IMG/VR virus record: IMGVR_UViG_3300027819_000023
Span: 1 to 42,877 of that record
From: a virus
Lineage: Duplodnaviria; Caudoviricetes
Strand: one strand, 5' to 3'
Length of the DNA: 42,877 nucleotides
The notes below the pieces were generated by a model. That model searched no databases. It had not been told where the DNA came from and saw only the letters and a list, made by a program, of their open reading frames with translations. This document shows, piece by piece, positions 11,974-42,877 of the stretch; the stretch's first letter is position 1; each line of letters begins with the position of its first letter. The position numbers and the translations under genes were made by a program.

Positions 11974-12002
11974 TTGACAAACAAAAACAAATAGTGTAGC
12001 CT
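11974..12002 (+). promoter_or_regulatory. Sigma70-type promoter
   Basis: TTGACA-17 nt-TAGCCT. Confidence 0.5.
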
Positions 12003-22005: not shown

Positions 22006-22275
22006 ATGGGAAAGAAAAAAGTTACGCATACTCAAGATATATTATTTTATGAAGGTAATGTCCCTCGTAATTTAACTGTAAAATCATTCAAAAATCCACT
22101 ACCTCATATCATGGTATTTGATATTGGATTTCACAAAGACGATAAAGGCTACGTTGAATTTAAAAAGGGAGGCAGAGAGGTTGCCAGGAAATACAAAGAC
22201 GGCTGCAAGCTTAATTACATGATCGAAGTTGATGGTAAGTCCTCTGGTTGGAAATGGGTTAAATATAATCATTAA
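22006..22275 (+). CDS. DGC-domain protein (paralogue B)
   Basis: FDIGFHKDD..Y...YKDGCKLNY...WVKYNH. Confidence 0.7.
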   Translation: MGKKKVTHTQDILFYEGNVPRNLTVKSFKNPLPHIMVFDIGFHKDDKGYVEFKKGGREVARKYKDGCKLNYMIEVDGKSSGWKWVKYNH

Positions 22276-23378: not shown

Positions 23379-23624
23379 ATGAAAACAACAAGGCGTAATT
23401 TCTTAAAGTATTTAGGTGCAATGGCTGGAAGTTTGTTTGCAATACCGGCTTTTTTTAATCCCAAAAAAGTGGACAAATTGCCCCTTTTTGTAGACCAGTC
23501 ATTACCAATGAAATGTGATAAAAGATTAACAGATACCGATGGTTGGTATATTGTTACCGACAAGGGAAAACCAAAAGAAATGTATATGTCTGAAAACCTT
23601 TATGGGAGACATGTAAAAGTATAA
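23379..23624 (+). CDS. Small protein with twin-arginine (Tat) signal
   Basis: TTRRNFLK followed by hydrophobic YLGAMAGSLFAIPA. Confidence 0.7.
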   Translation: MKTTRRNFLKYLGAMAGSLFAIPAFFNPKKVDKLPLFVDQSLPMKCDKRLTDTDGWYIVTDKGKPKEMYMSENLYGRHVKV

Positions 23625-23777: not shown

Positions 23778-23966
23778 ATGGAAAAAACAGGAAAAAAAGA
23801 TTTTGATCTTGGAGAACACAAAAAAGATATTCACTATGTTGAAACCAAAAAAGAAGATTATGTTGTCAAGAAATATAGTGATGGTTGTAAATTAAAGTAT
23901 CATAAGAATTTATCTGGCAAAGCAATTAGCCATGATAGGCATGAGTGGATTATATACCAACATTGA
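23778..23966 (+). CDS. DGC-domain protein (paralogue C)
   Basis: FDLGEHKKD..Y...YSDGCKLKY...WIIYQH. Confidence 0.65.
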   Translation: MEKTGKKDFDLGEHKKDIHYVETKKEDYVVKKYSDGCKLKYHKNLSGKAISHDRHEWIIYQH

Positions 23967-25458: not shown

Positions 25459-25977
25459 ATGGCAAATACTGATGATCCAAGAGGCGGATATCCTATCCGT
25501 CATTTGTGTGGTGGCGAGATAAGGTCGAACCCTTACACACTGACAACTGGTGCGCGGGTTTATCAAGGCGATCAAGTTGAACTTGCTGATGATGGAACTG
25601 TAGCTGTTTCAGAAGCGGGAGATGCAACGGCAGCCATTGGTTTTGCCGCAGAGCATAAGAACGATTCAGCCAGTGCTGGGGGCTTGAAAATTTTGATTTA
25701 TGATGACCCTAACATTGTTTTTGGTATTCAGCAACAAACTGGTGGTACTATTGCGGCTGCTGATGTAGGGCTTTGTGCTGACCATGTTGCTGGTAGTGGT
25801 AATACGACCACATTGCAATCTGGGCACGAATTAAGCTTAACAGTGGCTACCACAGCGGCACAATTTTTAATTATTGGTAAAGTAAGCGAACCTAATAATG
25901 ACTGGGGCGAACATTGTGATTTAGAAGTCATTTTCAATGAGCATCGTTACAAGGGTGCTGGTTCGGCAGGTGTATAA
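25459..25977 (+). CDS. Capsid decoration/cement protein
   Basis: MANTDDPRG..P, YQGD.V, DDPN..F; Gly/Ala-rich; directly before the MCP. Confidence 0.65.
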   Translation: MANTDDPRGGYPIRHLCGGEIRSNPYTLTTGARVYQGDQVELADDGTVAVSEAGDATAAIGFAAEHKNDSASAGGLKILIYDDPNIVFGIQQQTGGTIAAADVGLCADHVAGSGNTTTLQSGHELSLTVATTAAQFLIIGKVSEPNNDWGEHCDLEVIFNEHRYKGAGSAGV

Positions 25978-25988
25978 GGAGATAAACT

Positions 25989-26888
25989 ATGCCTATAAAT
26001 ACAGGTAATTTTGGAGAATTGTTAGAACCTGGGTTATTTAAGATATTTGGTGATGAATATCCAAAACACCCGGAAGAGTGGGTACAGAGTGGATTTGAAG
26101 TCCGTAATTCAACGAAATTAACGGAACATTCGTTGAATATCACAGGTCTTGGTCTGATGACCGAAAAAGGTCAGGGGCAAGGCGTAACCTATGATACTAT
26201 GTATCAAGGTGCAAAGCATAGCGTCACTCACACAACTTATGGTCTTGGTGTGATAATTACAGAAGAAATGTATGAGTTTGACCAGTATGACCGCATTAAT
26301 CAGGCTCCGGCAATGTTGGCACGTTCTGCTGCCTATACATTGAATATCATAACAGCGAATGTTTTGAATAGGGCTTTCAATGCTTCTTATACTGGTGGTG
26401 ATGGCAAAGTTTTGTGCGCAACAGACCATGTGTTATATCGCGGTGGCGGTTCTTTTAAGAATCGTCCAACAAATCATGCTGACCTTAGCCCGACATCGTT
26501 TGAGCAGGCAATGATTGATATAGGCGATTATGTTGATGATGCAGGGAATGTGTTTCCGGTAATGGCCAAGAAATTGGTAATTGCTAACGAAAATGACTGG
26601 GCTGCTACTACATTGCTGTATTCTACCCTTGACCCGGATACTGCAAACAATGCAGTGAATCCGGCAAAAGGCAGAGTACCATATTTCATAAATCATTTTT
26701 TGACCGACCCTGATGCTTGGTTCATTATTACTGATGTGCCAAATGGATTAATATTCCATATTAATAAGAGACCAAAGTTTACCAGGGACAATGACTTTGA
26801 TTCTGAGAATGCAAAGTTCAAAGTTGTAGCAAGAGGAGTGCCTACATGGGACGACCCACGGGCTGTTTACGGTAATGCAGGAGCATAA
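25989..26888 (+). CDS. Major capsid protein (HK97 fold, Mu gpT-like)
   Basis: LLEPGL, HTTYGLG..ITEE, GGDGKVL...H, HFLTDPDAWF, DPRAVYG. Confidence 0.9.
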   Translation: MPINTGNFGELLEPGLFKIFGDEYPKHPEEWVQSGFEVRNSTKLTEHSLNITGLGLMTEKGQGQGVTYDTMYQGAKHSVTHTTYGLGVIITEEMYEFDQYDRINQAPAMLARSAAYTLNIITANVLNRAFNASYTGGDGKVLCATDHVLYRGGGSFKNRPTNHADLSPTSFEQAMIDIGDYVDDAGNVFPVMAKKLVIANENDWAATTLLYSTLDPDTANNAVNPAKGRVPYFINHFLTDPDAWFIITDVPNGLIFHINKRPKFTRDNDFDSENAKFKVVARGVPTWDDPRAVYGNAGA

Positions 26889-26900
26889 GGAGGATAAAAA

Positions 26901-27869
26901 ATGTTTAAGAAGCTAATTGCCTCTATCATGCTGATGGGTTGTATTGCCACACCTGCATTTGCTGAATTATCAGTTTATCCCAAAGGGTTTCCGAATGGCA
27001 TAAGCATTAGAGGTATGTCAATACTCAATACATATTCTGGAAATGTGTATTGGGTTGGTTCTGGAACTGCAAATGCAAGCAATAGCAATAAAGGAGATAC
27101 GCCAGAAAGACCATTCGCTACGATTACTTATGTATTAAGTAATAAAGTGACTGCCAATAATGGTGATATTATCATGGTAAAGCCTGGTCATACCGAAGAT
27201 ATGGGCAATACGTCTATCACCATGAGCACAGGTGGAGTTGCTATTGTAGGATTGGGGGTAGGTTCTAATAGACCCACATTTACTTGGGGAACAAACTCTA
27301 CCAAAATCCAGGTCATAGGGAACAACAATACATTTAAGAATCTGTACTTTGATATGACAGGCGCAGGTAGTGTTTCGACAGGTATAGACATTGATGCAAA
27401 TTATACTACCTTAGAGGATTGTGAAATATTACAATCTGATTCGAGCGGGCAGTGTAATATGGCAATAGACGTAGGTACTTCTGCTGCTACTGTAATAAAT
27501 AAATTAAAAGTTGTTGCAAATACAGCAAGCCCACAAGCTGCCATTAATATTTCCGATACAGCAGCGCAGCTAGTGGTGAGTGATTGCTGGATTGACGGTA
27601 ATTATGGCAGTGCAACAATAAGCAATCCAAGTGGGGCGGTTGCTACTAATTTATTAATCAAAGATAACTTTTTAAGGAATCAGAAAAGTGCTGTAATTGC
27701 ATTGGATTTAAACAGTGCATGTACTGGAATTTTATCAGGCAATGTATATCATTCCAATGTTGGTTCAAGTACAGGTGCGGTTGATCCTGGCTCGATGTTT
27801 TCCTATCAGAATTACAGTGTCAGCGCAGTAGACAAATCAGCAGTATTATCACCAGTATCTTTGGATTAG
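26901..27869 (+). CDS. Beta-helix virion-associated protein with N-terminal signal peptide
   Basis: MFKKLIASIMLMGCIATPAFA; FPNG; GDTPERPFATI and GDII.V.PGH beta-helix cap motifs. Confidence 0.7.
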   Translation: MFKKLIASIMLMGCIATPAFAELSVYPKGFPNGISIRGMSILNTYSGNVYWVGSGTANASNSNKGDTPERPFATITYVLSNKVTANNGDIIMVKPGHTEDMGNTSITMSTGGVAIVGLGVGSNRPTFTWGTNSTKIQVIGNNNTFKNLYFDMTGAGSVSTGIDIDANYTTLEDCEILQSDSSGQCNMAIDVGTSAATVINKLKVVANTASPQAAINISDTAAQLVVSDCWIDGNYGSATISNPSGAVATNLLIKDNFLRNQKSAVIALDLNSACTGILSGNVYHSNVGSSTGAVDPGSMFSYQNYSVSAVDKSAVLSPVSLD

Positions 27870-27881
27870 TTTGATCTAAAC

Positions 27882-27908
27882 GGGGAGGGGTAAAATAGAC
27901 CCCTCCCC
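27882..27908 (+). terminator. Hairpin after the capsid operon
   Basis: GGGGAGGGGT/ACCCCTCCCC, weak T tail. Confidence 0.6.
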
Positions 27909-27925
27909 ATTATTAGGGGAAAGTT

Positions 27926-28444
27926 ATGAAAGTTCTCAGTAAATTATGTTGTATTGCATTAATAGTATTTATTCCAAGTGCTGTTTATGCTTTTACTGAA
28001 AATGGCATAACTGGAACAACTACTGTTGAAAATACAATTTCATCTGATTTTTCATCCTATGGACAAATATTAATAAAGGAGGTGACTAGACATAATTCCA
28101 CAGATATTACTAAAGTTGTTGGTACGGGAACTTACATTTATAATGATGCCAGTGGAACATCTTCAACTGCTGGAAGCGTAAATATCAAAGGAATGACTTC
28201 TGTTTCAGAAATGCTTAGTCTTGTTACGTATCCCGGAGGAACTGTTTCGGCTACCATAGAAATAGGCATAGGTTCAAATACTACTTGGTATACTGTGGTT
28301 ACTAATGAATTTACCGCAACAAGTACGGTATATTTTTATGAAGGAACACATACTGCCGATAGGATAAGAACAGGATGGAAAACTAATACGGCTGGTTCGA
28401 CAACTGTAAAAGATATTGGTTCTTATAAAAAGATTTTGAAATAA
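27926..28444 (+). CDS. Thr/Ser-rich beta protein with signal peptide
   Basis: MKVLSKLCCIALIVFIPSAVYA; located in the virion module. Confidence 0.65.
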   Translation: MKVLSKLCCIALIVFIPSAVYAFTENGITGTTTVENTISSDFSSYGQILIKEVTRHNSTDITKVVGTGTYIYNDASGTSSTAGSVNIKGMTSVSEMLSLVTYPGGTVSATIEIGIGSNTTWYTVVTNEFTATSTVYFYEGTHTADRIRTGWKTNTAGSTTVKDIGSYKKILK

Positions 28445-28644
28445 TGCGACAATATCCAAAAAGTAGGTATCAGGGAGGGACTTATAAAAGAGAATGCGAC
28501 AGATGCGGGTTTGATTTTTTAAGAAATGAATTACAAAAAGAAGCAGATACAAATGCTATTGTATGTGATGATTGTTTAGATGAGTATGACCCACAGAAAC
28601 ATATAAAGAAAAGAATACGAGAAAAACCATTCAGGAGAGATTAG
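28444..28644 (+). CDS. Small Zn-finger head-completion protein
   Basis: CDRCGF...VCDDCLD...PQ. Confidence 0.65.
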   Translation: MRQYPKSRYQGGTYKRECDRCGFDFLRNELQKEADTNAIVCDDCLDEYDPQKHIKKRIREKPFRRD

Positions 28645-28647
28645 TAA

Positions 28648-29973
28648 ATGCTGATTAGTGTTCATGGTTTTGGTAGTGGTAAAACTGTCAGCTATATGCT
28701 TCTCGATAAGGATGGTAATACTATCCTTGATTTCACATCCACCGATGTAACCGAGAGAGTTATTGATTCGACTGCTGGGGAATCAACATATCAAATAGAT
28801 TTATCAGATTTCGCAACAGGGACACAATTTGCGGTAATTTGGAAAACAAACGATGCGGCACCCTGGACTTCTTCAGAACGATTCAATATACGCACACCTG
28901 TTTTTGCTCATGGTTTTGGTTCGGGCAAAACTGTATCTTATAAAGTAATAGAAAAAGACGGCACAATTGATACCGACTGGACAACCACGGGAGTAACAGA
29001 GGTTGTAGTGGTTGCAGGTGTCGAATCCGTTTATTATGTAACACCTTCAGAAATAGACGATGATTTTGAGGGTCATGTATTCTTCAAAACATCTGATGCC
29101 ACGCCTTTAACAGCAGCCGAAACCTTTGCGCTTTATTCTACGGCAGATACTACCAGCGATTGGACAGTTAAAAGATACGATATAATTAAGGATGCTTTAC
29201 AAATATTGGCAGTTGTCGGGGAAAGCGAAGAGCCTACCTCAAACCAAGTGGAATTTGCAAACGTGAGATTAAATGCCGTAATGAAGGCATTGCAAACAAG
29301 AGGCATGATGGTATGGCTACAGCAATGGAGTCAGAAGACATTTACGGCTTCAAGTAAAAAATTAGGTACGGACGCAGAAACATATACTTGCATTCAAGGG
29401 CATACAGCATCCAGTACAAACAAACCAATAACCGGAGCTAACTATACATCTGTATGGAAGAAAACTGGTAGTGGTGGTACGACATGGGTAAGCGGATCGT
29501 CATATACCGCGATAGGAGATTTCGATTTGTCTGCTTCAGTGACAAATATAAAGAAAGCATTTATCAGAGACGGAAGCACTGATACCACTTTAGACATTGT
29601 AGTTATTGATGAATATTTCGACATGGCTGATAAAACCACAACTGGAACACCTACAATGTTGGTATTTGTAAAAAAACCTATTCCGCATGTTTATTTGTGG
29701 CCTCAGCCAGACGATACAACTCTTGTTTTGCATTATCTTGAAGAAAGACGCATAAGGGATTTCGACACTACAAAAACTGCCATAGATTTTGATGTAAAAT
29801 TTGTCAATGCCGTAACATTACAATTAGCTTATTCAATGAGTTATAAATATGGACGTAAACTTTCAGACAGGGAATTATTGAGAAGGGATGCAGAAGAAGC
29901 TTTCTTTTACGCTCTTGGTGATAGTAGAGAGACAAACGAAACTACTTGCTTTGTACCAGCAATGAGGAATTAA
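28648..29973 (+). CDS. Head-tail adaptor (P22 gp4/T7 gp11-like) with extra domains
   Basis: IIKDALQIL...E.P......LN; GTP, YLWPQPD, LAY; N-terminal tandem duplication. Confidence 0.65.
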   Translation: MLISVHGFGSGKTVSYMLLDKDGNTILDFTSTDVTERVIDSTAGESTYQIDLSDFATGTQFAVIWKTNDAAPWTSSERFNIRTPVFAHGFGSGKTVSYKVIEKDGTIDTDWTTTGVTEVVVVAGVESVYYVTPSEIDDDFEGHVFFKTSDATPLTAAETFALYSTADTTSDWTVKRYDIIKDALQILAVVGESEEPTSNQVEFANVRLNAVMKALQTRGMMVWLQQWSQKTFTASSKKLGTDAETYTCIQGHTASSTNKPITGANYTSVWKKTGSGGTTWVSGSSYTAIGDFDLSASVTNIKKAFIRDGSTDTTLDIVVIDEYFDMADKTTTGTPTMLVFVKKPIPHVYLWPQPDDTTLVLHYLEERRIRDFDTTKTAIDFDVKFVNAVTLQLAYSMSYKYGRKLSDRELLRRDAEEAFFYALGDSRETNETTCFVPAMRN

Positions 29974-29974
29974 T

Positions 29975-32041
29975 ATGAAATCTCTTAAAATATCAATAAT
30001 AATCTCGCTTGTATTCTCAGGTATAATATTTTGCATAGGCAGTGCTTATCCAGCCAACACAGCCACACAGATCGATTTTATTTTGAATGGATTAAATGAT
30101 ACAAAGGGTAATCCTCTCTCTGGTGGTAAGATAGAAGTTTATTCGGCTGGATTAACTACTGGTAAGAATGTATGGAGTGACAAGAATAAGACAACTGTGC
30201 TTGCAAATGGTTCTGTTGCTTCTGGTACACCAATAAAGCTTGATACGTATGGTAAAAAGCTTTGTTATGGTGATGGTTGGTATAAATTTACGGTTAAAAA
30301 TTCAGCAGATGTGACCTTGTTTACTGTGGACAATATCTACATCGGTAATAGAGACGGCAGCCGATATGATGTATCTGATTACAATGATTTAGGGGCTGCT
30401 GTGACTGCGATAGCTTCTAATAATGCAATACTAGAAATAAGGTCAAATGTATCTGTGGGAACAAATACTACAATTCCGTCAAATATTACTGTGGAAGTTT
30501 CTAGGGCTGGTAAATTCACAAAGTCAGGGGCAACATTAACAATTAATGGTAATTTAGATACGCATGATGGATTGATATTTGATGGATTTACGACTACTGA
30601 TATTACTCTTAATCCTCTTTATGTTAAAGAAGTACATCCGCAATGGTGGGGGTTTGCCACAACGGCATCGGAAGCAAACAATCTTACATATTTAACGGCT
30701 GCAATAAATGCTGGCGTGCAAGATGTTGTTGTCCCTTCGGGTTCATTTCCTTTGGATGCCTTTACGATTAATAAAAGCGTGAGTATTAGGGGTGTAATCA
30801 GTAAGGATAACGAAAGTACAAAAGAAACCATATTCACTAACGGGGATGCTGCTACTGTAATGAAAATATCTGGCACTGTATCGGTTCATTTAAGTGATTT
30901 TCAAATACAGTCTTCCGTTGCAGGTGGTAGCGAAATTGACATCGAAGGCAATGCTGATAATGTGTTAATAGAAAGGCTTTGGATTGAGAATACCGCGGGG
31001 GGCAGTGCTGGCCAATATGGTATACGATTTAATGCCTCTGGCGGTAATGGTGATATAGAAAATCCAATAATTGATAATTGTGTATTTGTTGGAATTTATT
31101 ACAATATTTTACACAATGATGTATCTGGAACTGGCAGAGTCATAAAGCTCATTGTTAGGAATTGCAAAATGAAAGGAAGTACGAATGTATATGAATATTA
31201 CGACCCAACAGGGCAGGGATATTCGGCCACTATCCAGAACAATGAATTTAATAATTTCACGAAATTAGGTATTTATTTCGGTAGTAGCACTGGTATGACT
31301 ATTGTAGATAATAGATTTGACATAGGCTCTAATTCTTGGGATACGTTTACAGGGGCAGTAACGACACGAAATCCTATACTTTGCGGTACGACTTCTTCTC
31401 AAATAACTGCTTTTGGTAATACTTTCGTGTCGGGAGATACCGAAACAAATGCAAGAGGGAAATTATTTAAGCATCTTGACCCATCTCAGGGTAAGTATTT
31501 ATTTATTGATCCGTATGATGGAATTTATGCCGACGTCTCACAAAGATATTTCGGGGGTTTCCTTTTCAAAAACAATATAGATACCACAGGCGAAACTATC
31601 CGAGTGCAAACGAATAATTCACAAACAGCGGATTTGCTTCAATTCCAAAATGGAAGCACATCTGCTGTGTTGAGTGGTATAAATGCTTATGGAAACAAAT
31701 ACAATATGCCTGTGACTGTTACGGCCAGCGGCGGTTCAATTACTTGCAATCTTGCCAATGGTAATGTTTTTTATTACACTGCTGCGACATCCACATCTCA
31801 ATATATTGAGTTTAGTAATCATACACCGGATAGCGGCCAGTCTAGTAATAATGTACAGGTAAAATTGTTATTTGTACAAGGTGCATCAGGTGCAACGCAT
31901 ACGGTAACTTGGGCAAACAATATCTATGGCACATCGGCAGTAAGTACCGCGGTAGCAAAGAGAGATTTGTATGTGTATGACTATTTTAATCAAGGCAGTG
32001 CTACAGGTTGGTTTGCTAATAGCATAACAAAGGGAATGTAA
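29975..32041 (+). CDS. Tailspike (beta-helix depolymerase-like) with signal peptide
   Basis: DTKGNPLSGGKIEVYSAGLTT..PIKLD..G particle-binding domain, PQWWG, beta-helix repeats. Confidence 0.8.
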   Translation: MKSLKISIIISLVFSGIIFCIGSAYPANTATQIDFILNGLNDTKGNPLSGGKIEVYSAGLTTGKNVWSDKNKTTVLANGSVASGTPIKLDTYGKKLCYGDGWYKFTVKNSADVTLFTVDNIYIGNRDGSRYDVSDYNDLGAAVTAIASNNAILEIRSNVSVGTNTTIPSNITVEVSRAGKFTKSGATLTINGNLDTHDGLIFDGFTTTDITLNPLYVKEVHPQWWGFATTASEANNLTYLTAAINAGVQDVVVPSGSFPLDAFTINKSVSIRGVISKDNESTKETIFTNGDAATVMKISGTVSVHLSDFQIQSSVAGGSEIDIEGNADNVLIERLWIENTAGGSAGQYGIRFNASGGNGDIENPIIDNCVFVGIYYNILHNDVSGTGRVIKLIVRNCKMKGSTNVYEYYDPTGQGYSATIQNNEFNNFTKLGIYFGSSTGMTIVDNRFDIGSNSWDTFTGAVTTRNPILCGTTSSQITAFGNTFVSGDTETNARGKLFKHLDPSQGKYLFIDPYDGIYADVSQRYFGGFLFKNNIDTTGETIRVQTNNSQTADLLQFQNGSTSAVLSGINAYGNKYNMPVTVTASGGSITCNLANGNVFYYTAATSTSQYIEFSNHTPDSGQSSNNVQVKLLFVQGASGATHTVTWANNIYGTSAVSTAVAKRDLYVYDYFNQGSATGWFANSITKGM

Positions 32042-33552
32042 TGCCAAATGTAAAGATTCCATTAAATTCAGAGCCAAACAAAGATGAAGATGGAGTCGTC
32101 CTTGTTGATGGGGCTGGTTGCGACCTTATCAATGGGTTTATTTCAAGATTTGGGGCGCTCCATAGACGTTGGGGATTGAAGAACTTCGTATCGCTTGATA
32201 TGGGAACTATACTTGGTGTTTATAATTGGGAAAAAGAGAATTTACTCATTGCCGCTTCTGGTGAAAAGATATATACGATAGACAAGTACGGTACAATAAA
32301 AAATATAACAGGCGACAAACTTCAATCTTCTGGAAGGGTAAAGTTTGCGGAGGACTATGATTTTGTGTATATGGCAAATGGTGGTAAGGTTGTGGCTTAT
32401 GCTACCTTCTTGCAATATTTACAGCAAAATATTGACCATCCCGATCTTGCAGAAAGAAGTACAGATGGTAATTTAGGCAATCTGGATGTGGATTATGATT
32501 ATACGGATTCAACTATTTATATGCCTGACGAACACGCCCCTACAAGCGTGACCAATTTGGGCATGATAGACACATACATGCTTATGAATAACAAAGGTGA
32601 CGATTTTCTTACTTATTCTGAAGTAAGCGAACCCTTGAATGTGTCGGCGCTTAATTTCTTTAGGGCTGAATCTAAAAGTGATAACATTGTAAATTTTGCC
32701 ACGGAAAGAGGAGAAATAACTGCCTTCGGTAGCAAAACAATAGAATTCTGGCAAAACGATGGTGTGTCACCTTTTAGTAAAATAGGCGGACTCGACATTG
32801 ACCGGGGCTTGGGTGCAGCCGATTCTCTTGTACCCATGAACGGTGGATTTATGTTTTTAGACCATGAACGCAAACTTATATTCCTTTCTGGTAGAAATCC
32901 CCAGGTTATGAGCGTGTCTTGGGATAAGGAATTGCATAGAATAAAGAATATCGAAGACACTATCGCGGACAATATCGCCGTGGATGGAAATATGCTTTAT
33001 GTATTCTCTTTTCCAACGGATGGCAAAACTTATGTTTTCGATTCAAGACTAAACAGATTTCAGGGTGAATGGGCTTCGTGGGATACGGCTAGGGCTGATT
33101 ATTCGAGATGGAGAGGTAATTGCTATACATACATTCCGCAATGGGGTAAGCATCTAGTTGGTGACATAAACAATGGCACTATATACGAAATCAGGAACGA
33201 TTACTATAAAGACGGTGACAATCCTATACGGCTACAATGGACTTCGGGGCATGTTTCACATGGAACAAATCAGTATAAGCAAAGCAATAGGTTGATGATA
33301 ACTTTAAAGCGTGGTTCAGATACAGCATTGTCTCAGAATCCAAGATGTCATATTAGTTGGAGAGACGACAATAAGCCAGATTGGTCAAATGGTAGGGATA
33401 TTGATTTGGGCAACGTAGGTGATACCGAAATGGTAAAAACATTACATGCTTTAGGGCAATACAGGAATAGACAATACAGGATTGAATATTCTGATGAATC
33501 AGATTTTATCATAGTCAATATTGAAGAAGATGCTGACATTTTAGATAGATAG
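32041..33552 (+). CDS. Tail nozzle/DNA stabilisation protein (P22 gp10-like)
   Basis: AESKSDNI, FGSKTIEFW, LVGD..NG, SWRDD...WSN, LGQYRNR. Confidence 0.85.
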   Translation: MPNVKIPLNSEPNKDEDGVVLVDGAGCDLINGFISRFGALHRRWGLKNFVSLDMGTILGVYNWEKENLLIAASGEKIYTIDKYGTIKNITGDKLQSSGRVKFAEDYDFVYMANGGKVVAYATFLQYLQQNIDHPDLAERSTDGNLGNLDVDYDYTDSTIYMPDEHAPTSVTNLGMIDTYMLMNNKGDDFLTYSEVSEPLNVSALNFFRAESKSDNIVNFATERGEITAFGSKTIEFWQNDGVSPFSKIGGLDIDRGLGAADSLVPMNGGFMFLDHERKLIFLSGRNPQVMSVSWDKELHRIKNIEDTIADNIAVDGNMLYVFSFPTDGKTYVFDSRLNRFQGEWASWDTARADYSRWRGNCYTYIPQWGKHLVGDINNGTIYEIRNDYYKDGDNPIRLQWTSGHVSHGTNQYKQSNRLMITLKRGSDTALSQNPRCHISWRDDNKPDWSNGRDIDLGNVGDTEMVKTLHALGQYRNRQYRIEYSDESDFIIVNIEEDADILDR

Positions 33553-33561
33553 GGAGAAAAT

Positions 33562-34161
33562 ATGGCTGATCCAGCATTTGATGGTGAAAAAATTGCAGAT
33601 TTAGATGTTGATAATGTCGCAGAAGGTTCGACAAAATTAAAACATCTTAATAATGCTATAAGAGAAAGTATCTCTTGTCTGCAAACTACTTTTAAAGTAG
33701 AGCATGATAATGATACAGGTAAACATACAAAGAGATTTTTTCACGAAACTGTTCAGCTTACTAAAGCCGCAGCAGATACATCTGTTGAAATAATACCCGA
33801 CACTGATGTTACCGACGACAGGATTCTTTACTTGACAGGTTTCCTTGTGTTTAATCCTGGTGCGGCATGGACTGGTGGAAGTTTTGGTAATGTTGCAATA
33901 AAAGACAATGCAGATGTTGTTTTCGTGAGAATAAAAGAAGCTGGATTGGGGGAAAATAATTACACAACAATAGGGAGCAATATAAATGGACTTGATGGAG
34001 GCACTTCGGCAAGTACATCATGTTTGAATTTTACAAATACATCTCCCATGCTTATGGGCGTAGGCGGTACAGCCAATAAAGGATTAAAAGTAATAGCAAA
34101 TGCAATACCGACATCTGGCGGGTCAAGTATTTATGTCACTGCTTGGGGATTCATATATTAA
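33562..34161 (+). CDS. Tail-associated protein
   Basis: 199 aa; EHDNDTGKH motif; position in tail module. Confidence 0.55.
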   Translation: MADPAFDGEKIADLDVDNVAEGSTKLKHLNNAIRESISCLQTTFKVEHDNDTGKHTKRFFHETVQLTKAAADTSVEIIPDTDVTDDRILYLTGFLVFNPGAAWTGGSFGNVAIKDNADVVFVRIKEAGLGENNYTTIGSNINGLDGGTSASTSCLNFTNTSPMLMGVGGTANKGLKVIANAIPTSGGSSIYVTAWGFIY

Positions 34162-35147
34162 TGAGAGATATTCCAAGAGATATTACAGATAAGAAAGATG
34201 TGGAAAGTTGGTTTAGGGCATTGCGTGATAATGCCATTGCTGTGACTTCTCACAAGGAATTATCTGATGTTGAAGAGGTTGACGATTCTTCTACTGATTC
34301 TTCTAAGACTAAGCATGTGTCTAATTATAATATGAAGAAGATTTCCGACCACATGGATGATGCAAGTAAACATTTGAATCAACAACTTACAGGCGGTTCT
34401 AATTATTTGAGTACAATAACGGCAACTGCCCCTGTTGCGGTTTCCGGTAGCGGAACATCTAGAGACATAAATATTAGTGCGCATGTAGACGGTCTTGACC
34501 CACATGATGTATATCAGAAAGAATCTGAAAAGGGTGCGGCCAGTGGATATGCTTCATTAAATGCATCATCTTTGGTAAGTGAAAATCCTGCAAACGCAAC
34601 CGCTACACCTACGGCAAGCAAAATACCTATTGCTGATGGGAGTGGTAAGCTTGATGGATGGATAACGGCAGCTACGGCATACACGGGTGGGAATAATATT
34701 GTAATATCAGGGACAGACATACATCAAGCTTTAGAATTCGGGGCATCTGCTTATCGGGCTGGATTTATAACCGTAACGACTTCAACATGGACAAAAATAA
34801 CTTTAGATAGCCTTACCGCAAGTTATTTAGATAATGATTTTGATCCGCTTACAAACAATGATTACCTTGCCCCAATAGCTGGCAATTATCATGTTGATAT
34901 TCTGGGGGGTATTGTATCTCTTGCTGACGGGGCAGAAGTACGCGTTGCTATTTATGTTAATGGTACAATTGTAAGTTATAATAATGCTTATTCTCCGAAT
35001 GCTGCGGCTTCCCCGCGGGTATTAATAAGCAAAGATTTAAAATTAGCAGCAAATGACCATGTAGAAGGTTATATTTGGCACGATCACGGTAGTAATAGAA
35101 ATACGATTACAGATGCAATGTATATGACAATCCATTTTATTGGATAA
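34161..35147 (+). CDS. Tail fibre/needle protein with C1q/TNF-like C-terminal domain
   Basis: H....DPH..Y, KGAASGYASL; Y.APIAGNY, L.LAANDHVE. Confidence 0.6.
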   Translation: MRDIPRDITDKKDVESWFRALRDNAIAVTSHKELSDVEEVDDSSTDSSKTKHVSNYNMKKISDHMDDASKHLNQQLTGGSNYLSTITATAPVAVSGSGTSRDINISAHVDGLDPHDVYQKESEKGAASGYASLNASSLVSENPANATATPTASKIPIADGSGKLDGWITAATAYTGGNNIVISGTDIHQALEFGASAYRAGFITVTTSTWTKITLDSLTASYLDNDFDPLTNNDYLAPIAGNYHVDILGGIVSLADGAEVRVAIYVNGTIVSYNNAYSPNAAASPRVLISKDLKLAANDHVEGYIWHDHGSNRNTITDAMYMTIHFIG

Positions 35148-35159
35148 GGAGTACAGAAT

Positions 35160-35909
35160 ATGTTTGGTGTTATAGGTTCGATGTTAGGTGCTGCTGCTGC
35201 TAAAAAGGGACTGTCATCGGCAGAAGACATTTATGATGAATATGGTAATCTGATTTCATCTGGGATTGAAGATGTAACGAAAAAAGGGACAAAAGCATAT
35301 AGGGAACAATACGATAAAGCGATCGGTATGTATGAACCCTATAGGAAATTAGGGTTAGATTTACTTGACCAATATAAAGATACATTAACACCAGGTTCAA
35401 AATGGTATCAATGGAGAGTAAAGGAAGGGGAGAAGGCTGTAAATAGAAAGATGGCATCTCTTGGGTTGTATGGCTCAGGAGAGGCATCTACAGAAGCATT
35501 GCAACGTATGAACACCCAATTGTCCGCGGAAGAAGAGCAATCTGTATTCGATAGGCTTTATGGTGGAGTAAGTCTTGGCTATGGAGCTACTGGTGCATCG
35601 GCTGGATTAAGAACACAGAAAGTCGGACAAGTGACTGGATTAAAGACATGGGGAACATCGAATCTTAACAATTTGTATACGTGGTTGGCTGAAAAGAAGG
35701 CGGCATTGGCACAAGAAAAGGGTATGCAAACGGCTGGATTATATAGCGGGATAGGTAATACTATAGATCAAGGTATAATGACAGGGCTTACATTAGGCAT
35801 GGGTGGAGGTGCTGGTGGTGCAGCGGGAGCAGCCGCTGGGAGTCGTGTTGCAAGTAGTGTTCCGAGTAGTTTAACCCCTAATTCTCTTTACAATTATAAA
35901 TTTAACTGA
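35160..35909 (+). CDS. DNA ejection protein (P22 gp7-like)
   Basis: G/A-rich termini, EPYR..G, TPG..YQ.R..EG.KAV..ASLGLYGSG. Confidence 0.75.
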   Translation: MFGVIGSMLGAAAAKKGLSSAEDIYDEYGNLISSGIEDVTKKGTKAYREQYDKAIGMYEPYRKLGLDLLDQYKDTLTPGSKWYQWRVKEGEKAVNRKMASLGLYGSGEASTEALQRMNTQLSAEEEQSVFDRLYGGVSLGYGATGASAGLRTQKVGQVTGLKTWGTSNLNNLYTWLAEKKAALAQEKGMQTAGLYSGIGNTIDQGIMTGLTLGMGGGAGGAAGAAAGSRVASSVPSSLTPNSLYNYKFN

Positions 35910-35916
35910 GGTTAAT

Positions 35917-37164
35917 ATGCCAATATCAGCAGGTTCTTTATACGATTATTATAATCCATTCTCCGGTACACAGAGGAACATTGCCAATTTTGCCGATTTG
36001 TATGAGCGTAAAAAGCAAAGAGGAATGCAAGAAAAAGAATTAGGATTGCGTGAGCGTGGATTAGGTTTAGAAGAGAAGCGATTTGGACTTGCAGAAAAAC
36101 AAGAGGGCAGGCTTGGGCAATCGCAAGGTTTAGAAGATGAATATAAAAGAATGATTATAGGTAGAGAAACTGAAGAATTAAAGATGAAGCAGGATTTAAT
36201 GAACGATCCTGGGACTAGAATCAAAATTATGTCAACTGCAATGAAAGAAGCCTTTGCAACAGGCGGTAAGAAATTAGCTGAGAGTACATTAAAAGCATTC
36301 CAGGGTAATCCTAAATATGAACCCGATGTTAGAGGCTATACAATTGATGATTTTCAATTTACCAAAGGCGGCGGTATGTACGCTCCAATCATAACCACAG
36401 AAGGGGAAAGACTCGAAGGTCAATATGCATTTGTTGACCCTCAAGGTGAAATGCACACATTGGATATGAGGGAAAAAGATGGTAGTAAGCCTTCGTCTCA
36501 GCAAGAATATGAATATTCCAAGAATTTACCAGAAGATGAAAAGGCACAATTTGAGAAATTTGCAACATCTGGAAGAAGCGGAGATATTATAAGTAAATCT
36601 CAAACAGCTACTATTGCGCATAATATAAGGCAAGAACTAAGACAAAATCCCTACATTAAAGACTTCCAAGATGTTGACCAGAAATATACTGTAATGCAGA
36701 AAGCTTTAGAATCAGCTAAGACTGCAAAAAGTTTTATTGCTGTAGATCAGGCATTAATCACATTGTTTAATAAAATGACTGACCCTCAATCTGTAGTTAG
36801 AGAAAGTGAATATGCCAGAACGCCACAAAATATGTCCTTAATAAGCCGTATAAAAGGCAAAGCTGAAAAGATTATGTCTGGTGGTGCGGGACTAACATCT
36901 GAAGAACGTACTGCTTTGACTGATATGGCAGCCAAGTTTCACGAAGTGTATCAATCTAATTATGATAATGCAATTACAGATTATACCGATTTGGCCAAGA
37001 ATACTGGCATACCGCCTGAATTAATAGGGATACCATTTCAAAGAAAAGAAAATAAATCAAAAGGCAAATTAACAGTTGAACAGGCAAGAGAATATTTAAA
37101 ACAATCTAGTGGTGATAGGAAAAAAGCAGAAGAGTTAGCAAAAACAGAGGGATGGTCATTTTAA
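35917..37164 (+). CDS. Internal virion/ejection protein (gp20-like position)
   Basis: Helical; KMTDPQSVVRESEY motif; position. Confidence 0.6.
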   Translation: MPISAGSLYDYYNPFSGTQRNIANFADLYERKKQRGMQEKELGLRERGLGLEEKRFGLAEKQEGRLGQSQGLEDEYKRMIIGRETEELKMKQDLMNDPGTRIKIMSTAMKEAFATGGKKLAESTLKAFQGNPKYEPDVRGYTIDDFQFTKGGGMYAPIITTEGERLEGQYAFVDPQGEMHTLDMREKDGSKPSSQQEYEYSKNLPEDEKAQFEKFATSGRSGDIISKSQTATIAHNIRQELRQNPYIKDFQDVDQKYTVMQKALESAKTAKSFIAVDQALITLFNKMTDPQSVVRESEYARTPQNMSLISRIKGKAEKIMSGGAGLTSEERTALTDMAAKFHEVYQSNYDNAITDYTDLAKNTGIPPELIGIPFQRKENKSKGKLTVEQAREYLKQSSGDRKKAEELAKTEGWSF

Positions 37165-39542
37165 TGGGCGTATTTGACGAAGCAGAAAAAAGCCTAAGTG
37201 TCTTTGATATTGCGGAAAGCCAAGTGGCCACCATAGAGAGACCGCCGGAATTGGAAGAAAAATCTTCTGGCTTTAAATCTACTATTGAGCAAATAGAAAA
37301 ACCAATGGTAGATTTAAGCAAATTGCCTGGTAGTAATATTGCAAGGAAAACACAAGAGCTTGGCACAGAAATGCTTTTGGGTGTCGGTGGTGCTGCAATA
37401 GGTACTGCGGTCGCCCCGGGTGTTGGAACATTATTAGGCGCCGGCGCTGGCTATGCTCTTGGTAAGAGATTAAATGAAATTGGACGTGGAGAAGAAAAAG
37501 ATATAGGTAAAAGCTTTATAGATGCTGCTAAAGATGTTGCTTGGGGTGCTACGTTTGAAGGTGTTGGACAATTAGCAGGTAAGGGAATAGGAAAAGTAAC
37601 AGGATTATACAAAAATAGAGTTAATAAGGAATTTGTTCAACAGGCAAAAGAATTAGGCATAAAGCCAACGCCTGATGATATTACAAAATCAAAGACGTTG
37701 GCGATGTTCGAGACTAACTTGAGGCGTTTCTATGGTAGCGGGCAATTGTTTTATAAAGAAGATATTGAGAATACACAGAAGTTGATTGACCAATACAAAA
37801 ATGCAATTGCATCAGGTAAAGGTGCTTCCTCAATAGAAGAGCTTGGTAACGCTATTAAAAATAATGTAGACGATTATGTAACAAGGATTGAAAGTTTGAG
37901 GGGTAGATTCTTAAATCAAGCAAGGAATACAATCTTGAAGGATTTAGGTTCGCCGGATACCTACGAAACACTTGGAAGTAAATTCCACGAAGCCACAAAA
38001 GATGAGTCTCAGGCATTGGGCAAAATCGTTAAAGATAGATATGAAGAAGTAAAAGGTTTGATTAATTCTGCAATTCCACAAGAAAAACAGAATATTCCAT
38101 TAATAGAAACCAAAAAGGTAGCAGAAAAATATATAAAGGAATTAAGTAAAACTCCTGTACTTGCTGGTAAGTACAAAGGAATCATTAATGATTTAAAAGA
38201 AATTTTAAATGATACAATTGATATACCTGCACAATATAATAGACCTCTGGGACTTAGCGGGGAAACATCCGAAGCCTATAACGAAATATTTGGAAATATT
38301 ATAAAAAAACCTATCAAAAAAGATTGGGAATCGGTTGAATTAATGAGGCGATTATATAGAGATACAGCAGTAAAAGTTGATGAAGCATTTCAGGCTGCAA
38401 CTCCTGGCATAAAGGGGCAAATTAAAGAAGGCAAAAGTCTTGAGTCTTTAATTTATAGTAGGCTGAAAAATGCAATACAAACAGATCAAACAGCTTATAC
38501 CGAATTACTAGGGAAAGGTATTCAATCTAAATATGAAATAGCAAAGAAAACTGCACAAACATTAAAAACAACTTATGGGAATCCAGAAATAATAAAACTT
38601 GTTCAGTCTCATCCGGGAGAAATAATTGATGAAATATTAAAACCTTCTGGCTATGCAGAAATTGAAGCAGTAAAGAAAGCCATAGGGCAGTCAAATTTTG
38701 ATAAAATCATAAAACCTGGGATTACAAATAAATTGTTAGGCATAGGCAAAAATGAGATATTTGACCCGAATTATACCAGCAAGCAAATGTCTAATTTAAA
38801 CAAACAATTATTGAATAAAATCTATACCCCAACTGAATTAAAAACCATTACAGACATTGCCAAGAAGGGGATTGATTTTGCAAATAAACCTTTATATCCT
38901 TCATTCTTAAAACAAATTGCAGAATCAGGGAAAGAATCTGCTTATGGTATTGCCAAAAATGCCTTTGCTCAAGACGGTAAATATTTAACACGGAATTTAT
39001 CTACAATCTATAAATTGTCCGACCAATCAGCAAGAGACGAGCTTAAATATCAAATAACAGTTCAATTATTTACAGCAAAGCAACCATCGGGAGCAATTGA
39101 CCCCATGTCTATAGGGTCGAGAGAGCCTAAATTACTTGGATTTAGTGGTAAGGCATTTAGAAAGCAAGTAGATAAATTCTATCCATTATTGAAACAATTT
39201 GGTTATTCAACTGAGGATATAGGATTGTTGAAGAAAATTGCAAATGTTGCAGAGAACTTAAAAGGGGCAGAAAAGGTAGCGGGTAATCCAAGCGGTACAG
39301 GACAGGCAATGGCTACGCAGGCACAACTAGGCGTAGCATTAAGCCTAGTGTTCTCTGGGCATCCAATAGCTGCTGGTGCTGTAGCTGGCGCTCCCTATTT
39401 ACTTGCTAAGGCTTACTTATCACCAATGGGTAGAAGATTGCTAACAGAGGGATTAAAAATACCTACGGGAACACCACAAGCTACAGAATGGCTTACCAAA
39501 ATGATGACTTATTCAGCAGCTAATAATTTTACTGAGGAATAA
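37164..39542 (+). CDS. Large ejection protein (gp16-like position)
   Basis: Gly-zipper hydrophobic segments, NPSGTG motif near the C-terminus; start MGVFDE. Confidence 0.65.
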   Translation: MGVFDEAEKSLSVFDIAESQVATIERPPELEEKSSGFKSTIEQIEKPMVDLSKLPGSNIARKTQELGTEMLLGVGGAAIGTAVAPGVGTLLGAGAGYALGKRLNEIGRGEEKDIGKSFIDAAKDVAWGATFEGVGQLAGKGIGKVTGLYKNRVNKEFVQQAKELGIKPTPDDITKSKTLAMFETNLRRFYGSGQLFYKEDIENTQKLIDQYKNAIASGKGASSIEELGNAIKNNVDDYVTRIESLRGRFLNQARNTILKDLGSPDTYETLGSKFHEATKDESQALGKIVKDRYEEVKGLINSAIPQEKQNIPLIETKKVAEKYIKELSKTPVLAGKYKGIINDLKEILNDTIDIPAQYNRPLGLSGETSEAYNEIFGNIIKKPIKKDWESVELMRRLYRDTAVKVDEAFQAATPGIKGQIKEGKSLESLIYSRLKNAIQTDQTAYTELLGKGIQSKYEIAKKTAQTLKTTYGNPEIIKLVQSHPGEIIDEILKPSGYAEIEAVKKAIGQSNFDKIIKPGITNKLLGIGKNEIFDPNYTSKQMSNLNKQLLNKIYTPTELKTITDIAKKGIDFANKPLYPSFLKQIAESGKESAYGIAKNAFAQDGKYLTRNLSTIYKLSDQSARDELKYQITVQLFTAKQPSGAIDPMSIGSREPKLLGFSGKAFRKQVDKFYPLLKQFGYSTEDIGLLKKIANVAENLKGAEKVAGNPSGTGQAMATQAQLGVALSLVFSGHPIAAGAVAGAPYLLAKAYLSPMGRRLLTEGLKIPTGTPQATEWLTKMMTYSAANNFTEE

Positions 39543-39544
39543 AT

Positions 39545-42469
39545 ATGAAATATTTAATTATACCATTAACAATCTTTTTTTCTTCATATTTGAATGCAGC
39601 CGAATTTATACCGAAAAAGCTAAGTCAAATGACTGATGATTTAGGAATTGGTACGCATACGGCTGATACAAGTGATCCGCACGGAGCTACTGCAACACAA
39701 ACCAACCTAACCGTTGGAAGTTTAACCGTAACAGGCTCATTGGGTTTGGGTACGGTTACCCTATCTGGATATATGGCCGACAATGGTGGTTCGGCTACTT
39801 CGGCAAGACTAACATCGGTTCAAATAAATTCTGGTACTGGAACGTTATCAGCGGCGACAATTGCGGGAGTTTCAGCTCCATATCCAGCGCAAAATTCTGG
39901 CACTTGCACTGGATTAACTGCAAACAATACTAAATTAAGCGGGAATACCGCAATAGGAACAACTACTGCTGCGACAGATGTGGTTGATATTGATTTAGGT
40001 TCTGGTAATATGTTAATACAGTCTTCTTCTGGTTATCCTCAAACACAAGAAATACGTGGGGGTGCTGCGGCTGATGGTAATTTACTTGCCACTAAAATTT
40101 ATCAAGGAAAAGATAGCGCAGGTAATTCAACAAACTATGCGGGCATTTATAGTGTTTCAAGTAACGTAACAAATGGAAGCGAACAAGGTACTTTAGATTT
40201 CTATCTTTCAGATGCAGGTTCTTACGCTTTAAGAGGGCGTTGGAAAGGCTTAAATTTAGGTATAGGTACGTCTACACCACAAACAAAATTGCATGTTAAT
40301 GGCGATATTTCAATTCAAACATCAGGTTATTTGAATTTTGCCCCTAATACTGGAACAGCATCGAGTGGTTATGGAATTAGAGATAATGCAGGGACTATGC
40401 AATACAAAGGCAATGCAGGTACATGGACGGATATTCCATCAGGGGCAAGCGGTGGGGGTTTTATAGATAATGGAACAAATATTACTGAAACCACAGTAGC
40501 CGACCAAGTTCTTATAGGGACGACATCGGTTAATAATCGTCAATTTAATTGCGTTGGATCATCTACATTTTATGGCCAGGTTGCGATAGGTTCAAATACT
40601 ACTATAGTGAGTGGTTTGAATAGCACTTTGTTGGAATTGGTTCTTGGAGATAATGATACAGGCTTTAAATGGCTACAAGATGGAGATTTTGCGTTATATG
40701 GCAATGGAGATGAACAAATAAAAATTGATGGCAATGCCGATAAGGTATTAATAGGAACTACTACTTCTGGAACACGATTAAATGTTGGGGGCACGGTAAC
40801 GGCTGGTGGATTTAGTGGAAATGGTGCGGGATTGACCAATTTGCCTTCACAGGCTTTCTCACAAGTCACGGGTTCTGCCACAGCATCTCAATTGCCTCTA
40901 ATTTCAGGGTTGATTGGTTCTGCCACAGCATCTCAATTGCCTCTAATTTCAGGGTTGATTGGTTCTGCAACAGCATCTCAATTGCCAACGGTTATTAGAT
41001 TACCGGCAACAACTACAGCGCAAGCAGCAGGGGATTATGGACAACTCTATGTTAATAGTAGTAATGCAACCTCTGGTTATGAGTCTATTGTACTATTACT
41101 CCACATGAATAATCCTGGAGGTTCGGGAACGACTTTTGTGGATTCGTCTCCGAGTTCACATACTATAACCACAAGTGGAGATGCTGTAGGCACAAGTACG
41201 AGTAAATTCGGGAGTGGCGCAGGATATTTTGCTGGAACAGGGGACTACTTAACTGGTACAGATAGTGCTATCTTGGAATTTGCGGCAGGCGACTTTACCA
41301 TAGATTATTGGATTAAGTTTCTAGACACGGCTACTGGGGCACATGTATCACATTGGGACATATCTAGCACAGGATGGGAAATGTACTGGGGTGGCAATGT
41401 ATTAACATTTATATTCAATAGTGGTACACAGGTTGATAGATCGTGGACACCTACTTTAAATACTTGGTATCACGTAGAAATAGACAGAAGCGGAGCAAAT
41501 CTATATGATTTTATAGATGGTACGCAATTGGGCGCTACTTACAATATAGGCACAACATCTATAGCTGATAGCGCGGTAGGCATCGGGATAGCCGCTAGAA
41601 CTACTGGGGGTATTCCTGCAAATATTGTTATGGATGAGTTATGTATTTCCAAAGGAGTTGCTAGACATACTGGGAATTTCACCCCGCCGACAGCTGAATA
41701 CTCAAGTAATTATACACAGTATAACGCTATTTACAAGAATCCCGTTGCTGGAACAGATATGATTCTTCTACAATCCCCAGGAACTGCAACTACGGAGAAA
41801 TCATACATTTTAAATAATGCGACAATGACAGCATTTGGCTACGGAACAACAACAGGATTGCTTAATACATCAACTGTGTATTCTGCCGAGGCTAAGTATG
41901 GTGTAGCGGCTACCGTATTTGGGATAAAATCTGTGGATAAAATTAAGGGACATAAAACTAGATTTGTGAATAGTGTTCTAAGCAAAGTAAGAGGCATAAA
42001 TCTATGGGAATGGGATTTAATAGTTAGAAATACCAATGGGCTTGACGCAGAAGCACAAGCAAAATCTACCTATATTGATAGCAAAAAAGATGATTGGCTT
42101 GCCCTTAATAGAAATAAGTATATTGTATCCTCTAAAGAGACAGGGACGGGAACTGTGAATACTTACGACAAAGAGGCAATGAGTAAGGATTATAAAACTT
42201 ATGTCGAGCTTGAGTGGGCATCTGATTTAGAACAGCCAGATTTGGTTGACGCAGAGAAGGAAAATATGGATGTTGATTATGGTCAACATTTGCATGGGTT
42301 CAGGGTAAGTGACCCTACAACGCCGAAAGAGATCATAGTATCTGATGGAAGTGGCATTAGCATGATGGATGCGATAGCCATAAGCTATAAAGCCATCCAA
42401 GAGTTAGATGCTATTGTACAATTGCAGAAAACAGAGATCGACGAATTAAGGGTGTTAGTAAATCCTTAA
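39545..42469 (+). CDS. Tail fibre with signal peptide, LamG/ConA-like domain and S74-like C-terminal chaperone
   Basis: MKYLIIPLTIFFSSYLNA; NLGIGTSTPQTKLHVNG; LLLHMN..SKFG..DFTIDYW..ISKGVAR..NFTPPT; KAIQEL coiled coil. Confidence 0.85.
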   Translation: MKYLIIPLTIFFSSYLNAAEFIPKKLSQMTDDLGIGTHTADTSDPHGATATQTNLTVGSLTVTGSLGLGTVTLSGYMADNGGSATSARLTSVQINSGTGTLSAATIAGVSAPYPAQNSGTCTGLTANNTKLSGNTAIGTTTAATDVVDIDLGSGNMLIQSSSGYPQTQEIRGGAAADGNLLATKIYQGKDSAGNSTNYAGIYSVSSNVTNGSEQGTLDFYLSDAGSYALRGRWKGLNLGIGTSTPQTKLHVNGDISIQTSGYLNFAPNTGTASSGYGIRDNAGTMQYKGNAGTWTDIPSGASGGGFIDNGTNITETTVADQVLIGTTSVNNRQFNCVGSSTFYGQVAIGSNTTIVSGLNSTLLELVLGDNDTGFKWLQDGDFALYGNGDEQIKIDGNADKVLIGTTTSGTRLNVGGTVTAGGFSGNGAGLTNLPSQAFSQVTGSATASQLPLISGLIGSATASQLPLISGLIGSATASQLPTVIRLPATTTAQAAGDYGQLYVNSSNATSGYESIVLLLHMNNPGGSGTTFVDSSPSSHTITTSGDAVGTSTSKFGSGAGYFAGTGDYLTGTDSAILEFAAGDFTIDYWIKFLDTATGAHVSHWDISSTGWEMYWGGNVLTFIFNSGTQVDRSWTPTLNTWYHVEIDRSGANLYDFIDGTQLGATYNIGTTSIADSAVGIGIAARTTGGIPANIVMDELCISKGVARHTGNFTPPTAEYSSNYTQYNAIYKNPVAGTDMILLQSPGTATTEKSYILNNATMTAFGYGTTTGLLNTSTVYSAEAKYGVAATVFGIKSVDKIKGHKTRFVNSVLSKVRGINLWEWDLIVRNTNGLDAEAQAKSTYIDSKKDDWLALNRNKYIVSSKETGTGTVNTYDKEAMSKDYKTYVELEWASDLEQPDLVDAEKENMDVDYGQHLHGFRVSDPTTPKEIIVSDGSGISMMDAIAISYKAIQELDAIVQLQKTEIDELRVLVNP
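40871..40986 (+). repeat. 45-bp tandem repeat (2.6 copies) in the tail fibre
   Basis: GGTTCTGCCACAGCATCTCAATTGCCTCTAATTTCAGGGTTGATT x2 plus a partial copy. Confidence 0.95.
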
Positions 42470-42667: not shown

Positions 42668-42693
42668 TATATTTTATTAAGGAGTAATATATA

Positions 42694-42783
42694 ATGCAAT
42701 GGCTTCCTATATTTCCGTTTGTGATAATAGCAGTTTGTGTAGGTGGTATTACCTACTGTATGTGGCATTTGCCACCAAATTAA
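42694..42783 (+). CDS. Small membrane peptide (29 aa)
   Basis: AAGGAG RBS; MQWLPIFPFVIIAVCVGGITYCMWHLPPN. Confidence 0.5.
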   Translation: MQWLPIFPFVIIAVCVGGITYCMWHLPPN

Positions 42784-42792
42784 GGAGTAAAT

Positions 42793-42877
42793 ATGAATAA
42801 ATTATTTGAATTCTTGCAAGAAAACAATGGTAATCTAAGCACGGCAAGATTAATTCCTGTAGTTATTACTGCTGCCG
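42793..42877 (+). CDS. Holin-like membrane protein, truncated by window end
   Basis: AAGGAG RBS; EFLQENNGNLSTARLI (S..R preceding a TM helix). Confidence 0.5.
   Translation, partial: MNKLFEFLQENNGNLSTARLIPVVITAA

Follow-up and report, generated by a model that had tools for sequence, protein, structure and literature searches.

Four predicted outer appendages of a tailed virus begin with what appear to be Sec-type export signals. They are encoded in IMGVR_UViG_3300027819_000023 (Duplodnaviria; Caudoviricetes), a linear virus record of 42,877 nucleotides (nt) with an estimated completeness of 82%, referred to here as the window. The genes concerned start at positions 26901, 27926, 29975 and 39545 and are named by these positions. 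Leaders are found on the four appendages and on none of the core proteins, hence the appendages are likely exported by Sec; the best reading of the sequence, and one that we consider rather likely, is that they are exported and that lysis then allows them to dock on particles of the P22/Pam1 type. The textbook view places the assembly of tailed phages entirely in the cytoplasm, and the pattern seems to represent a real, widespread and apparently undescribed variant of appendage biogenesis, the mechanism of which is plausible and unproven.

Leaders were recognised with a rule of our own, which looks for a positive n-region, a hydrophobic h-region and a c-region with small residues at -3/-1. Among the 34 plus-strand genes beyond position 12000 the rule was positive for exactly these four, which the original prediction had singled out for their n/h/c signals and whose open reading frames (ORFs) and N-termini are as it quoted them. 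Likewise, the portal, major capsid, decoration, adaptor and nozzle proteins, which it took to lack such signals, were all negative, as were the ejection proteins. Positives elsewhere amounted to one of the 27 minus-strand ORFs of the left arm and 5 of 5528 internal windows of the window's structural proteins. In a calibration on 36 E. coli genes, labelled by us from annotation and recall, seven of eight secreted proteins were flagged (MalE was missed), with false positives among the cytoplasmic (1/16) and inner-membrane (1/8) proteins; the one lipoprotein was also flagged. The cleavage positions given by the rule are unreliable, therefore cleavage sites were taken from alignment with leaderless relatives.

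Whether the true starts lie downstream of the hydrophobic segments, a point raised with the original prediction, is answered by the ribosome-binding sites. A Shine-Dalgarno-like motif is present at the leader ATG of each of the four genes, and no ATG, GTG or TTG with such a motif was found at the mature N-terminus in these genes or in the ten related genes inspected. Rule and start-site check together place a Sec/signal peptidase I (SPI)-type n/h/c pattern at the true start of all four proteins, with an ambiguous cleavage site in 29975. Downstream or dual starts were rejected, as internal start codons lack a ribosome-binding motif. The same evidence makes it improbable that the proteins exist in two pools, with incomplete export or a second start supplying a cytoplasmic form for the particles and the exported form serving a separate envelope role. 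Codons 10 and 12 of gene 26901 are indeed ATG, and inside some leaders starts were set by gene callers, which would fit such an arrangement; however, the internal codons lack a ribosome-binding motif and are not conserved between relatives, and neither 27926 nor the window spike has such a codon ahead of the mature N-terminus.

The case for export is strongest for the tailspike 29975. Its N-domain profile, built with the leader excluded, matches the Pam1 'Tailspike head-binding domain' (PDB 7EEQ) with an E-value of 4e-17, and a head-binding domain is thus present at the N-terminus directly behind the signal, as had been claimed. The beta-helix was modelled over residues 250–500, with a block predicted local distance difference test score (pLDDT) mostly of 70–94, and the best fold matches are the P22 tailspike (a moderate model, mean pLDDT 60.9, TM ~0.2). 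It is well supported that 29975 is a P22/Pam1-type tailspike and a virion protein; it is also the window's only recognised protein with a head-binding domain, and it differs from the described tailspikes in not being a leaderless chain. As the leader precedes a phage-specific domain, we infer that it is not the leftover of a captured host enzyme. The full leader is found in 10 of the 13 proteins of the spike clade, and in the other three the start was called inside it. Identity among these ten is 76% in the head-binding domain, 66% in the beta-helix and 58% in the leader (58–74% in other parts). At the junction, ANTATQIDF of the spike aligns with MANALQVEF of a leaderless relative (locus L087), and several spike leaders finish in Y-P-A or F-P-A, which makes the exact cleavage site ambiguous. 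In three loci, the leader sits on the single head-binding gene of the locus, which lies 3' of ejection-type genes in L154 and L157 and 3' of nozzle and needle-like genes in L206. A complex prediction with two adaptor cores and three head-binding domains scored 0.00 and counts neither way.

The head-tail adaptor itself has extra N-terminal repeats of ~80 amino acids (aa) each (28648–29142), common only to L119–L121, and in L119 and L120 one adaptor-type repeat forms a separate 81-aa gene. It is possible that these repeats are a docking site for an exported protein. An adaptor insert near residues 235–290 has a carbohydrate-binding look by eye.

The capsid-adjacent protein 26901 is likely a head spike, as its gene position and fold suggest. 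Cleavage is predicted after AFA and before E, the model is a beta-helix (mean pLDDT 83.9) with lyase-like fold matches, and the N-terminal arm is conserved and poorly modelled; no solved homologue was found beyond lyase-type beta-helices. Among the 120 homologues listed out of 130 matches, 113 are leaderless, 112 of which begin 3–11 residues before a conserved Tyr, while one has a non-hydrophobic 18-residue extension. The remaining seven have a leader: five make up the window's clade (one of them called short) and two are distant. In the alignment, AFA followed by ELSVYPKGF stands against the relatives' start MPISNYPxGF, hence the leader stops where the relatives begin. Family members lie within 1 kb 3' of the major capsid gene in all 67 loci with that capsid type (17 of the 84 loci had none). 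The gap between the capsid gene and the 26901-family gene is 12–29 nt where a leader is present (window 26888–26901, L121, L097) versus mostly 60–190 nt otherwise, and the leader of 26901 may have its origin in this spacer. Leader-bearing members have 4–6 cysteines versus a family median of 5; C185, C229 and C274 are common to the five clade members and rare elsewhere. Matches in genome bins span many phyla and may be mis-binned, and the sole homologue from a phage collection is an uncultured record.

These junctions also bear on the idea that the leaders are not export signals at all, being either uncleaved inner-membrane assembly tethers or mis-read N-terminal extensions. Our rule is home-made and flags some membrane proteins, and the Y-P-A and F-P-A ends with their ambiguous cleavage site would suit this idea. 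Against it, the n/h/c pattern recurs in unrelated sequences of 18–35 aa that stop at the family N-terminus. Furthermore, in Sec topology the positive charge of the n-region sets the membrane crossing of the chain, and the charge seen here implies that the rest of the chain crosses the membrane. We therefore regard this explanation as very improbable.

Leaders of this kind are not confined to the window. The head-binding profile matches 34,985 clusters, of which the best 150, available as proteins only and not a random sample, were inspected. In this set, 123 representatives start at the domain, none of them rule-positive, two hold the domain internally and 25 have an extension of 12–35 residues. 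Twenty extensions are rule-positive and four more are signal-like by eye (for one of these the start was called short, the full leader being seen in L153), which gives 24 with a signal-like leader. By contrast, none of the 390 distinct homologues of core genes (capsid, portal, terminase, decoration, adaptor, nozzle, scaffold and ejection), taken as profile or phmmer matches across the fetched loci without hand check, was rule-positive. Elsewhere in these loci the rule was positive for 12 of 84 head-binding genes and 3 of 88 26901-family genes (by eye, one of the three is a false positive), with a background of 56/2023 plus-strand ORFs of at least 120 aa. The query used to collect the 80 loci was itself made from proteins with a leader, hence these shares do not give frequencies in the population. 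In the loci with DNA, no upstream in-frame start giving a signal was found for the 63 head-binding and 83 26901-family leaderless genes; consequently, the possibility that leaderless relatives are gene-caller truncations was rejected for these loci. One of the 63 (L177) has a short hydrophobic start, possibly missed by the rule.

In a quick, poorly resolved tree of 161 head-binding domains (92 columns; five rows omitted, three labelled by eye), the leader trait required 18 state changes versus 26.2 for shuffled labels, and the well-supported branches force at least two. The trait has thus changed more than once, gain and loss being inseparable by this tree; in it, the window's clade is grouped with proteins that have no leader, that of L087 among them. 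Within this clade the leader seems to follow the gene slot. In L121, leaders are present on the 26901 and spike homologues; the 27926 slot is occupied there by an unrelated protein of 144 aa that also has one and is the sole leader-bearer among 40 distinct members of its family (the 39 others are leaderless). The head module of L119 and L120 is a different one, yet both have leaders on the spike, on the fibre (a homologue of 39545 whose leader differs) and on an unrelated 198-aa protein encoded 3' of the capsid and decoration genes. In addition, four appendage-type genes with leaders, including a 26901 homologue, are found on a distant phage-like contig (L097, L150). Beyond the window's clade, leaders appear to have been gained gene by gene, and their spread is far wider than one genome. 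As regards the module itself, L119:3208-7962 and L120:2906-7660 share the window's tail module and differ in portal, scaffold and a 369-aa capsid protein, a head-module swap; their large terminases (L119:478-3207, L120:701-2905) exceed that of the window by ~370 aa and, by eye, contain intein-like text.

The other two leader-bearing proteins are less readily placed. Cleavage of 27926 is predicted after VYA and before F, and the mature protein has zero cysteines. No family match was found in Pfam, PHROG or NCBIfam, its Atlas neighbours are unnamed viral clusters with a score below 0.9 (a lead only), and its virion membership is the weakest case of the four. For 39545, cleavage is predicted after LNA and before A. 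It has a LamG domain (Laminin_G_3, E-value 9e-8), and its C-terminus resembles Peptidase_S74 by Atlas features (0.92; 30/30 named matches are S74) without a Pfam match; its slot is the spike position in Xanthomonas phage PBR31 and Rhodoferax phage P26218. Gene position and fold suggest that 39545 is a virion protein. A toxin was considered and rejected, as the Toxin_R_bind_N Pfam match is weak, below the cut-off and overlaps the LamG domain. The N-terminus of 39545 shows no similarity to the leaderless fibre-like protein 34161.

A role away from the particle was also considered. The appendages might be exported into the envelope or the medium, where they would mask or degrade receptor glycans, mediate superinfection exclusion, protect progeny from debris, assist release or act as adhesins like the Bdellovibrio MAT fibres. 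The lyase-like beta-helix and lectin folds fit the attack or binding of glycans, the leaders seem to have been gained gene by gene, a leaderless fibre-like gene (34161) exists, and MAT provides a precedent for surface adhesins made of a signal peptide, a fibre and an S74 domain, the outline seen in 39545 (described in the accessible part of PMC10769870). On the other hand, no part of the spike is better conserved than the head-binding domain, and 26901 has kept its N-terminal arm; neither would be expected to last if there were no particle to bind. Furthermore, the co-oriented structural operon includes all four genes, the leader sits on the only head-binding gene in view in several genomes, and leader-bearing proteins of Cellulophaga phage phi18:3 are annotated as structural from mass spectrometry (MS). 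On balance an off-particle role is unlikely for the set as a whole, although 27926 and 39545 may be MAT-like adhesins or receptor-destroying proteins.

In the favoured reading, that of export followed by docking, the host Sec pathway would export the four predicted outer appendages, and trimming by signal peptidase would give them the same N-terminus as their leaderless relatives. The appendages would fold outside the cytoplasm, and lysis would mix the compartments, so that they could dock on finished particles at or after lysis; P22 tailspikes reportedly bind finished heads in vitro, for which no confirming paper was found. Docking is suggested by the head-binding domain being most conserved, by the leader on the only head-binding gene in view in several genomes, and by the MS annotation in phi18:3. 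In broader terms, there would be a second assembly route, with a cytoplasmic core, Sec-secreted spikes and a lysis step that finishes or arms the virion, to which many lineages would have switched individual appendages independently; we lean slightly towards this generalisation.

Several points weigh against this reading. No enrichment was found either of cysteine in leader-bearing head-binding proteins (0.71 vs 0.80 per 100 aa; 20 vs 123, p 0.72) or of glycosylation motifs (sequons) with the leader, thus disulfide folding and glycosylation do not account for the leaders here. Neither 27926 nor 39545 has a recognised particle anchor, and the needle- or fibre-like 34161 is leaderless, hence particles may have some appendage without export. 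The lysis genes are located past the window end, the record being incomplete. The structural status of the phi18:3 proteins comes from a GenBank note only, and co-purification is possible. Moreover, leaders do not co-occur significantly: among 67 distinct loci of the 80, further leader-bearing genes (at least 120 aa) were found in 3 of 8 loci whose head-binding gene has a leader versus 12 of 59 in which it has none (Fisher p 0.36), L043 has a leader on the head-binding gene and not on the 26901 homologue, and L173 shows the reverse. The homologue survey proposed with the original prediction therefore did not bring out a significant co-occurrence of signals, and an all-or-none genome-wide leader system is unsupported by these counts; the earlier interpretation is supported in part, the leaders being real, lineage-specific and absent from the core. 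Finally, the leaders right before the family N-terminus, the intact conserved head-binding domain and the leaderless core are observed, while export, cleavage and docking are what we infer from them.

By its gene content, the right half of the window is a single co-oriented structural operon of P22/Pam1 podophage type (Table 1), with terminase, portal, capsid, a P22 gp4-like adaptor, a Pam1/P22 gp10-like hub and ejection-type genes; the label 'decoration' for the 25459 product is suggested by position only.

Table 1. Features of the late structural region of the window.
Feature	Coordinates	Strand	Basis or remark
Decoration-like protein and major capsid protein	25459..26888	+	Leaderless; Phage_capsid_4 and PHROG major head matches
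Head spike candidate, 322 aa, beta-helix, 21-aa leader	26901..27869	+	Model, fold matches, capsid adjacency
Ser/Thr-rich beta protein, 172 aa, 22-aa leader	27926..28444	+	No family match
Head-tail adaptor (P22 gp4-like), leaderless, two extra N-terminal repeats	28648..29973	+	Profile match to P22 gp4 chains, E 7e-5
Tailspike, 688 aa: leader ~24-27 aa, head-binding domain (~30053-30352), beta-helix, C-terminal domains	29975..32041	+	
Tail hub/nozzle (Pam1 needle head, P22 gp10-like), leaderless	32041..33552	+	PHROG head closure Hc3, E 3e-51; 7EEQ needle head, E 9e-6
Two tail-region proteins, leaderless (199 aa; 328 aa, needle- or fibre-like)	33562..35147	+	Second: weak PHROG tail-fibre match, E 3.6e-4
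Three ejection-type proteins, leaderless	35160..39542	+	First: PHROG 'DNA ejection'; other two by position
Fibre, 974 aa, 18-aa leader, LamG lectin domain, S74-like C-terminus	39545..42469	+	Slot following ejection genes

Other plus-strand features of the window were also noticed. An 81-aa ORF at 23379–23624 has an N-terminal twin-arginine (Tat) signal (TIGR01409, above the cut-off) and a counterpart at L121:3681; it may mark a second export route within the same late region. A GroES/Cpn10 homologue is encoded at 21734–22003. The stretch 3' of the fibre (42693–42877) contains a 29-aa hydrophobic ORF and the cut start of an ORF with a motif that looks holin-like. A 542-aa protein 5' of the terminase (14758–16386) has no leader and no family match; by eye, it has a zinc-peptidase-like HEFAH motif and a carbohydrate-binding-like end. 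Three small ORFs (16435–16980, 22006–22275 and 23778–23966) have a common C-terminal motif, K/R-x-Y-x-DGC-x-L-x-Y, finishing W-x-W-V-K-Y or similar. A promoter and terminator scan of the window gave results at or below chance, no RNA dataset containing the window is listed, and the nozzle scan returned the same phage only. Two DNA datasets, both groundwater runs, contain it in full; as they may be its source, the match of their contigs to it is not independent.

If about one sixth of the closest sampled head-binding families (24/150) export their spike, lysis would count among the steps of assembly. Phage maturation would then be limited by the secretion machinery of the host, and particles released together could swap spikes. 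The annotation of signal-peptide phage genes, which are often set aside as morons, would also change, as would the laboratory expression of receptor-binding proteins.

Virion proteins with cleavable leaders are known from filamentous phages, whose pIII and pVIII are membrane-anchored and assembled during extrusion. In contrast, the window's mature proteins have no membrane anchor, and the core of its head and tail is of the type that tailed phages build in the cytoplasm. An N-terminal head-binding domain like that of 29975 is found in cyanophage Pam1 (PDB 7EEQ), PDB 9VYG/9VYH, PBR31 gp34, P26218 gp26 and P22 gp9; the window shares with these systems the homologous domain and a beta-helix body, and also has the P22 gp4-like adaptor and gp10-like hub. 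The PBR31 and P26218 spikes, however, begin at the domain itself, whereas the window spike has a 24–27-aa signal-like leader before it. The N-domain of the PBR31 spike is described as an apparent virion-binding domain, and in the accessible part of that paper the one protein said to have a signal peptide is a separate esterase (PMC10975493).

No description of exported tailed-phage appendages came up in searches of the open full-text literature, which take in few subscription papers and no supplements, and the accessible parts of PMC3426561 and PMC13730344 contain nothing on them. The crAss001 fibres were rejected as a precedent, as their models begin at residue 1 and the accessible text nowhere uses the word 'signal' (PMC10172136). 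The MAT fibres of Bdellovibrio, bacterial surface adhesins with a signal peptide, a phage-like fibre and an S74 chaperone, show that trimers of the outline found in 39545 can mature after export; they differ, as far as the accessible text goes, in being chromosomally encoded adhesins, in which a conserved 130-aa domain follows the signal peptide, and not parts of a virus particle (PMC10769870).

Two cultured tailed phages also encode fibre- or spike-like proteins with leaders. In phi18:3 (KC821620), gp085–gp087 have leaders and are annotated 'structural protein, experimental MS/MS proteomics'; they are three of 12 structural proteins so annotated, the other nine being without leaders, and they are fibre- or spike-like by eye. 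This phage also has two annotated cpn10 genes, as the window has a GroES/Cpn10 homologue. For Burkholderia phage Bcep781 gp49 (AF543311), the record says 'possible tail fiber; possible signal peptide domain', which is the nearest prior notice found; unlike the window's four proteins, gp49 is cysteine-rich (15 in 692 aa). No homology of these leader-bearing proteins to the window's four was seen, no dedicated comparison having been made, and both records are without an export or assembly model. Cultured phages, phi18:3 and Bcep781 among them, would allow a direct test of export followed by docking.

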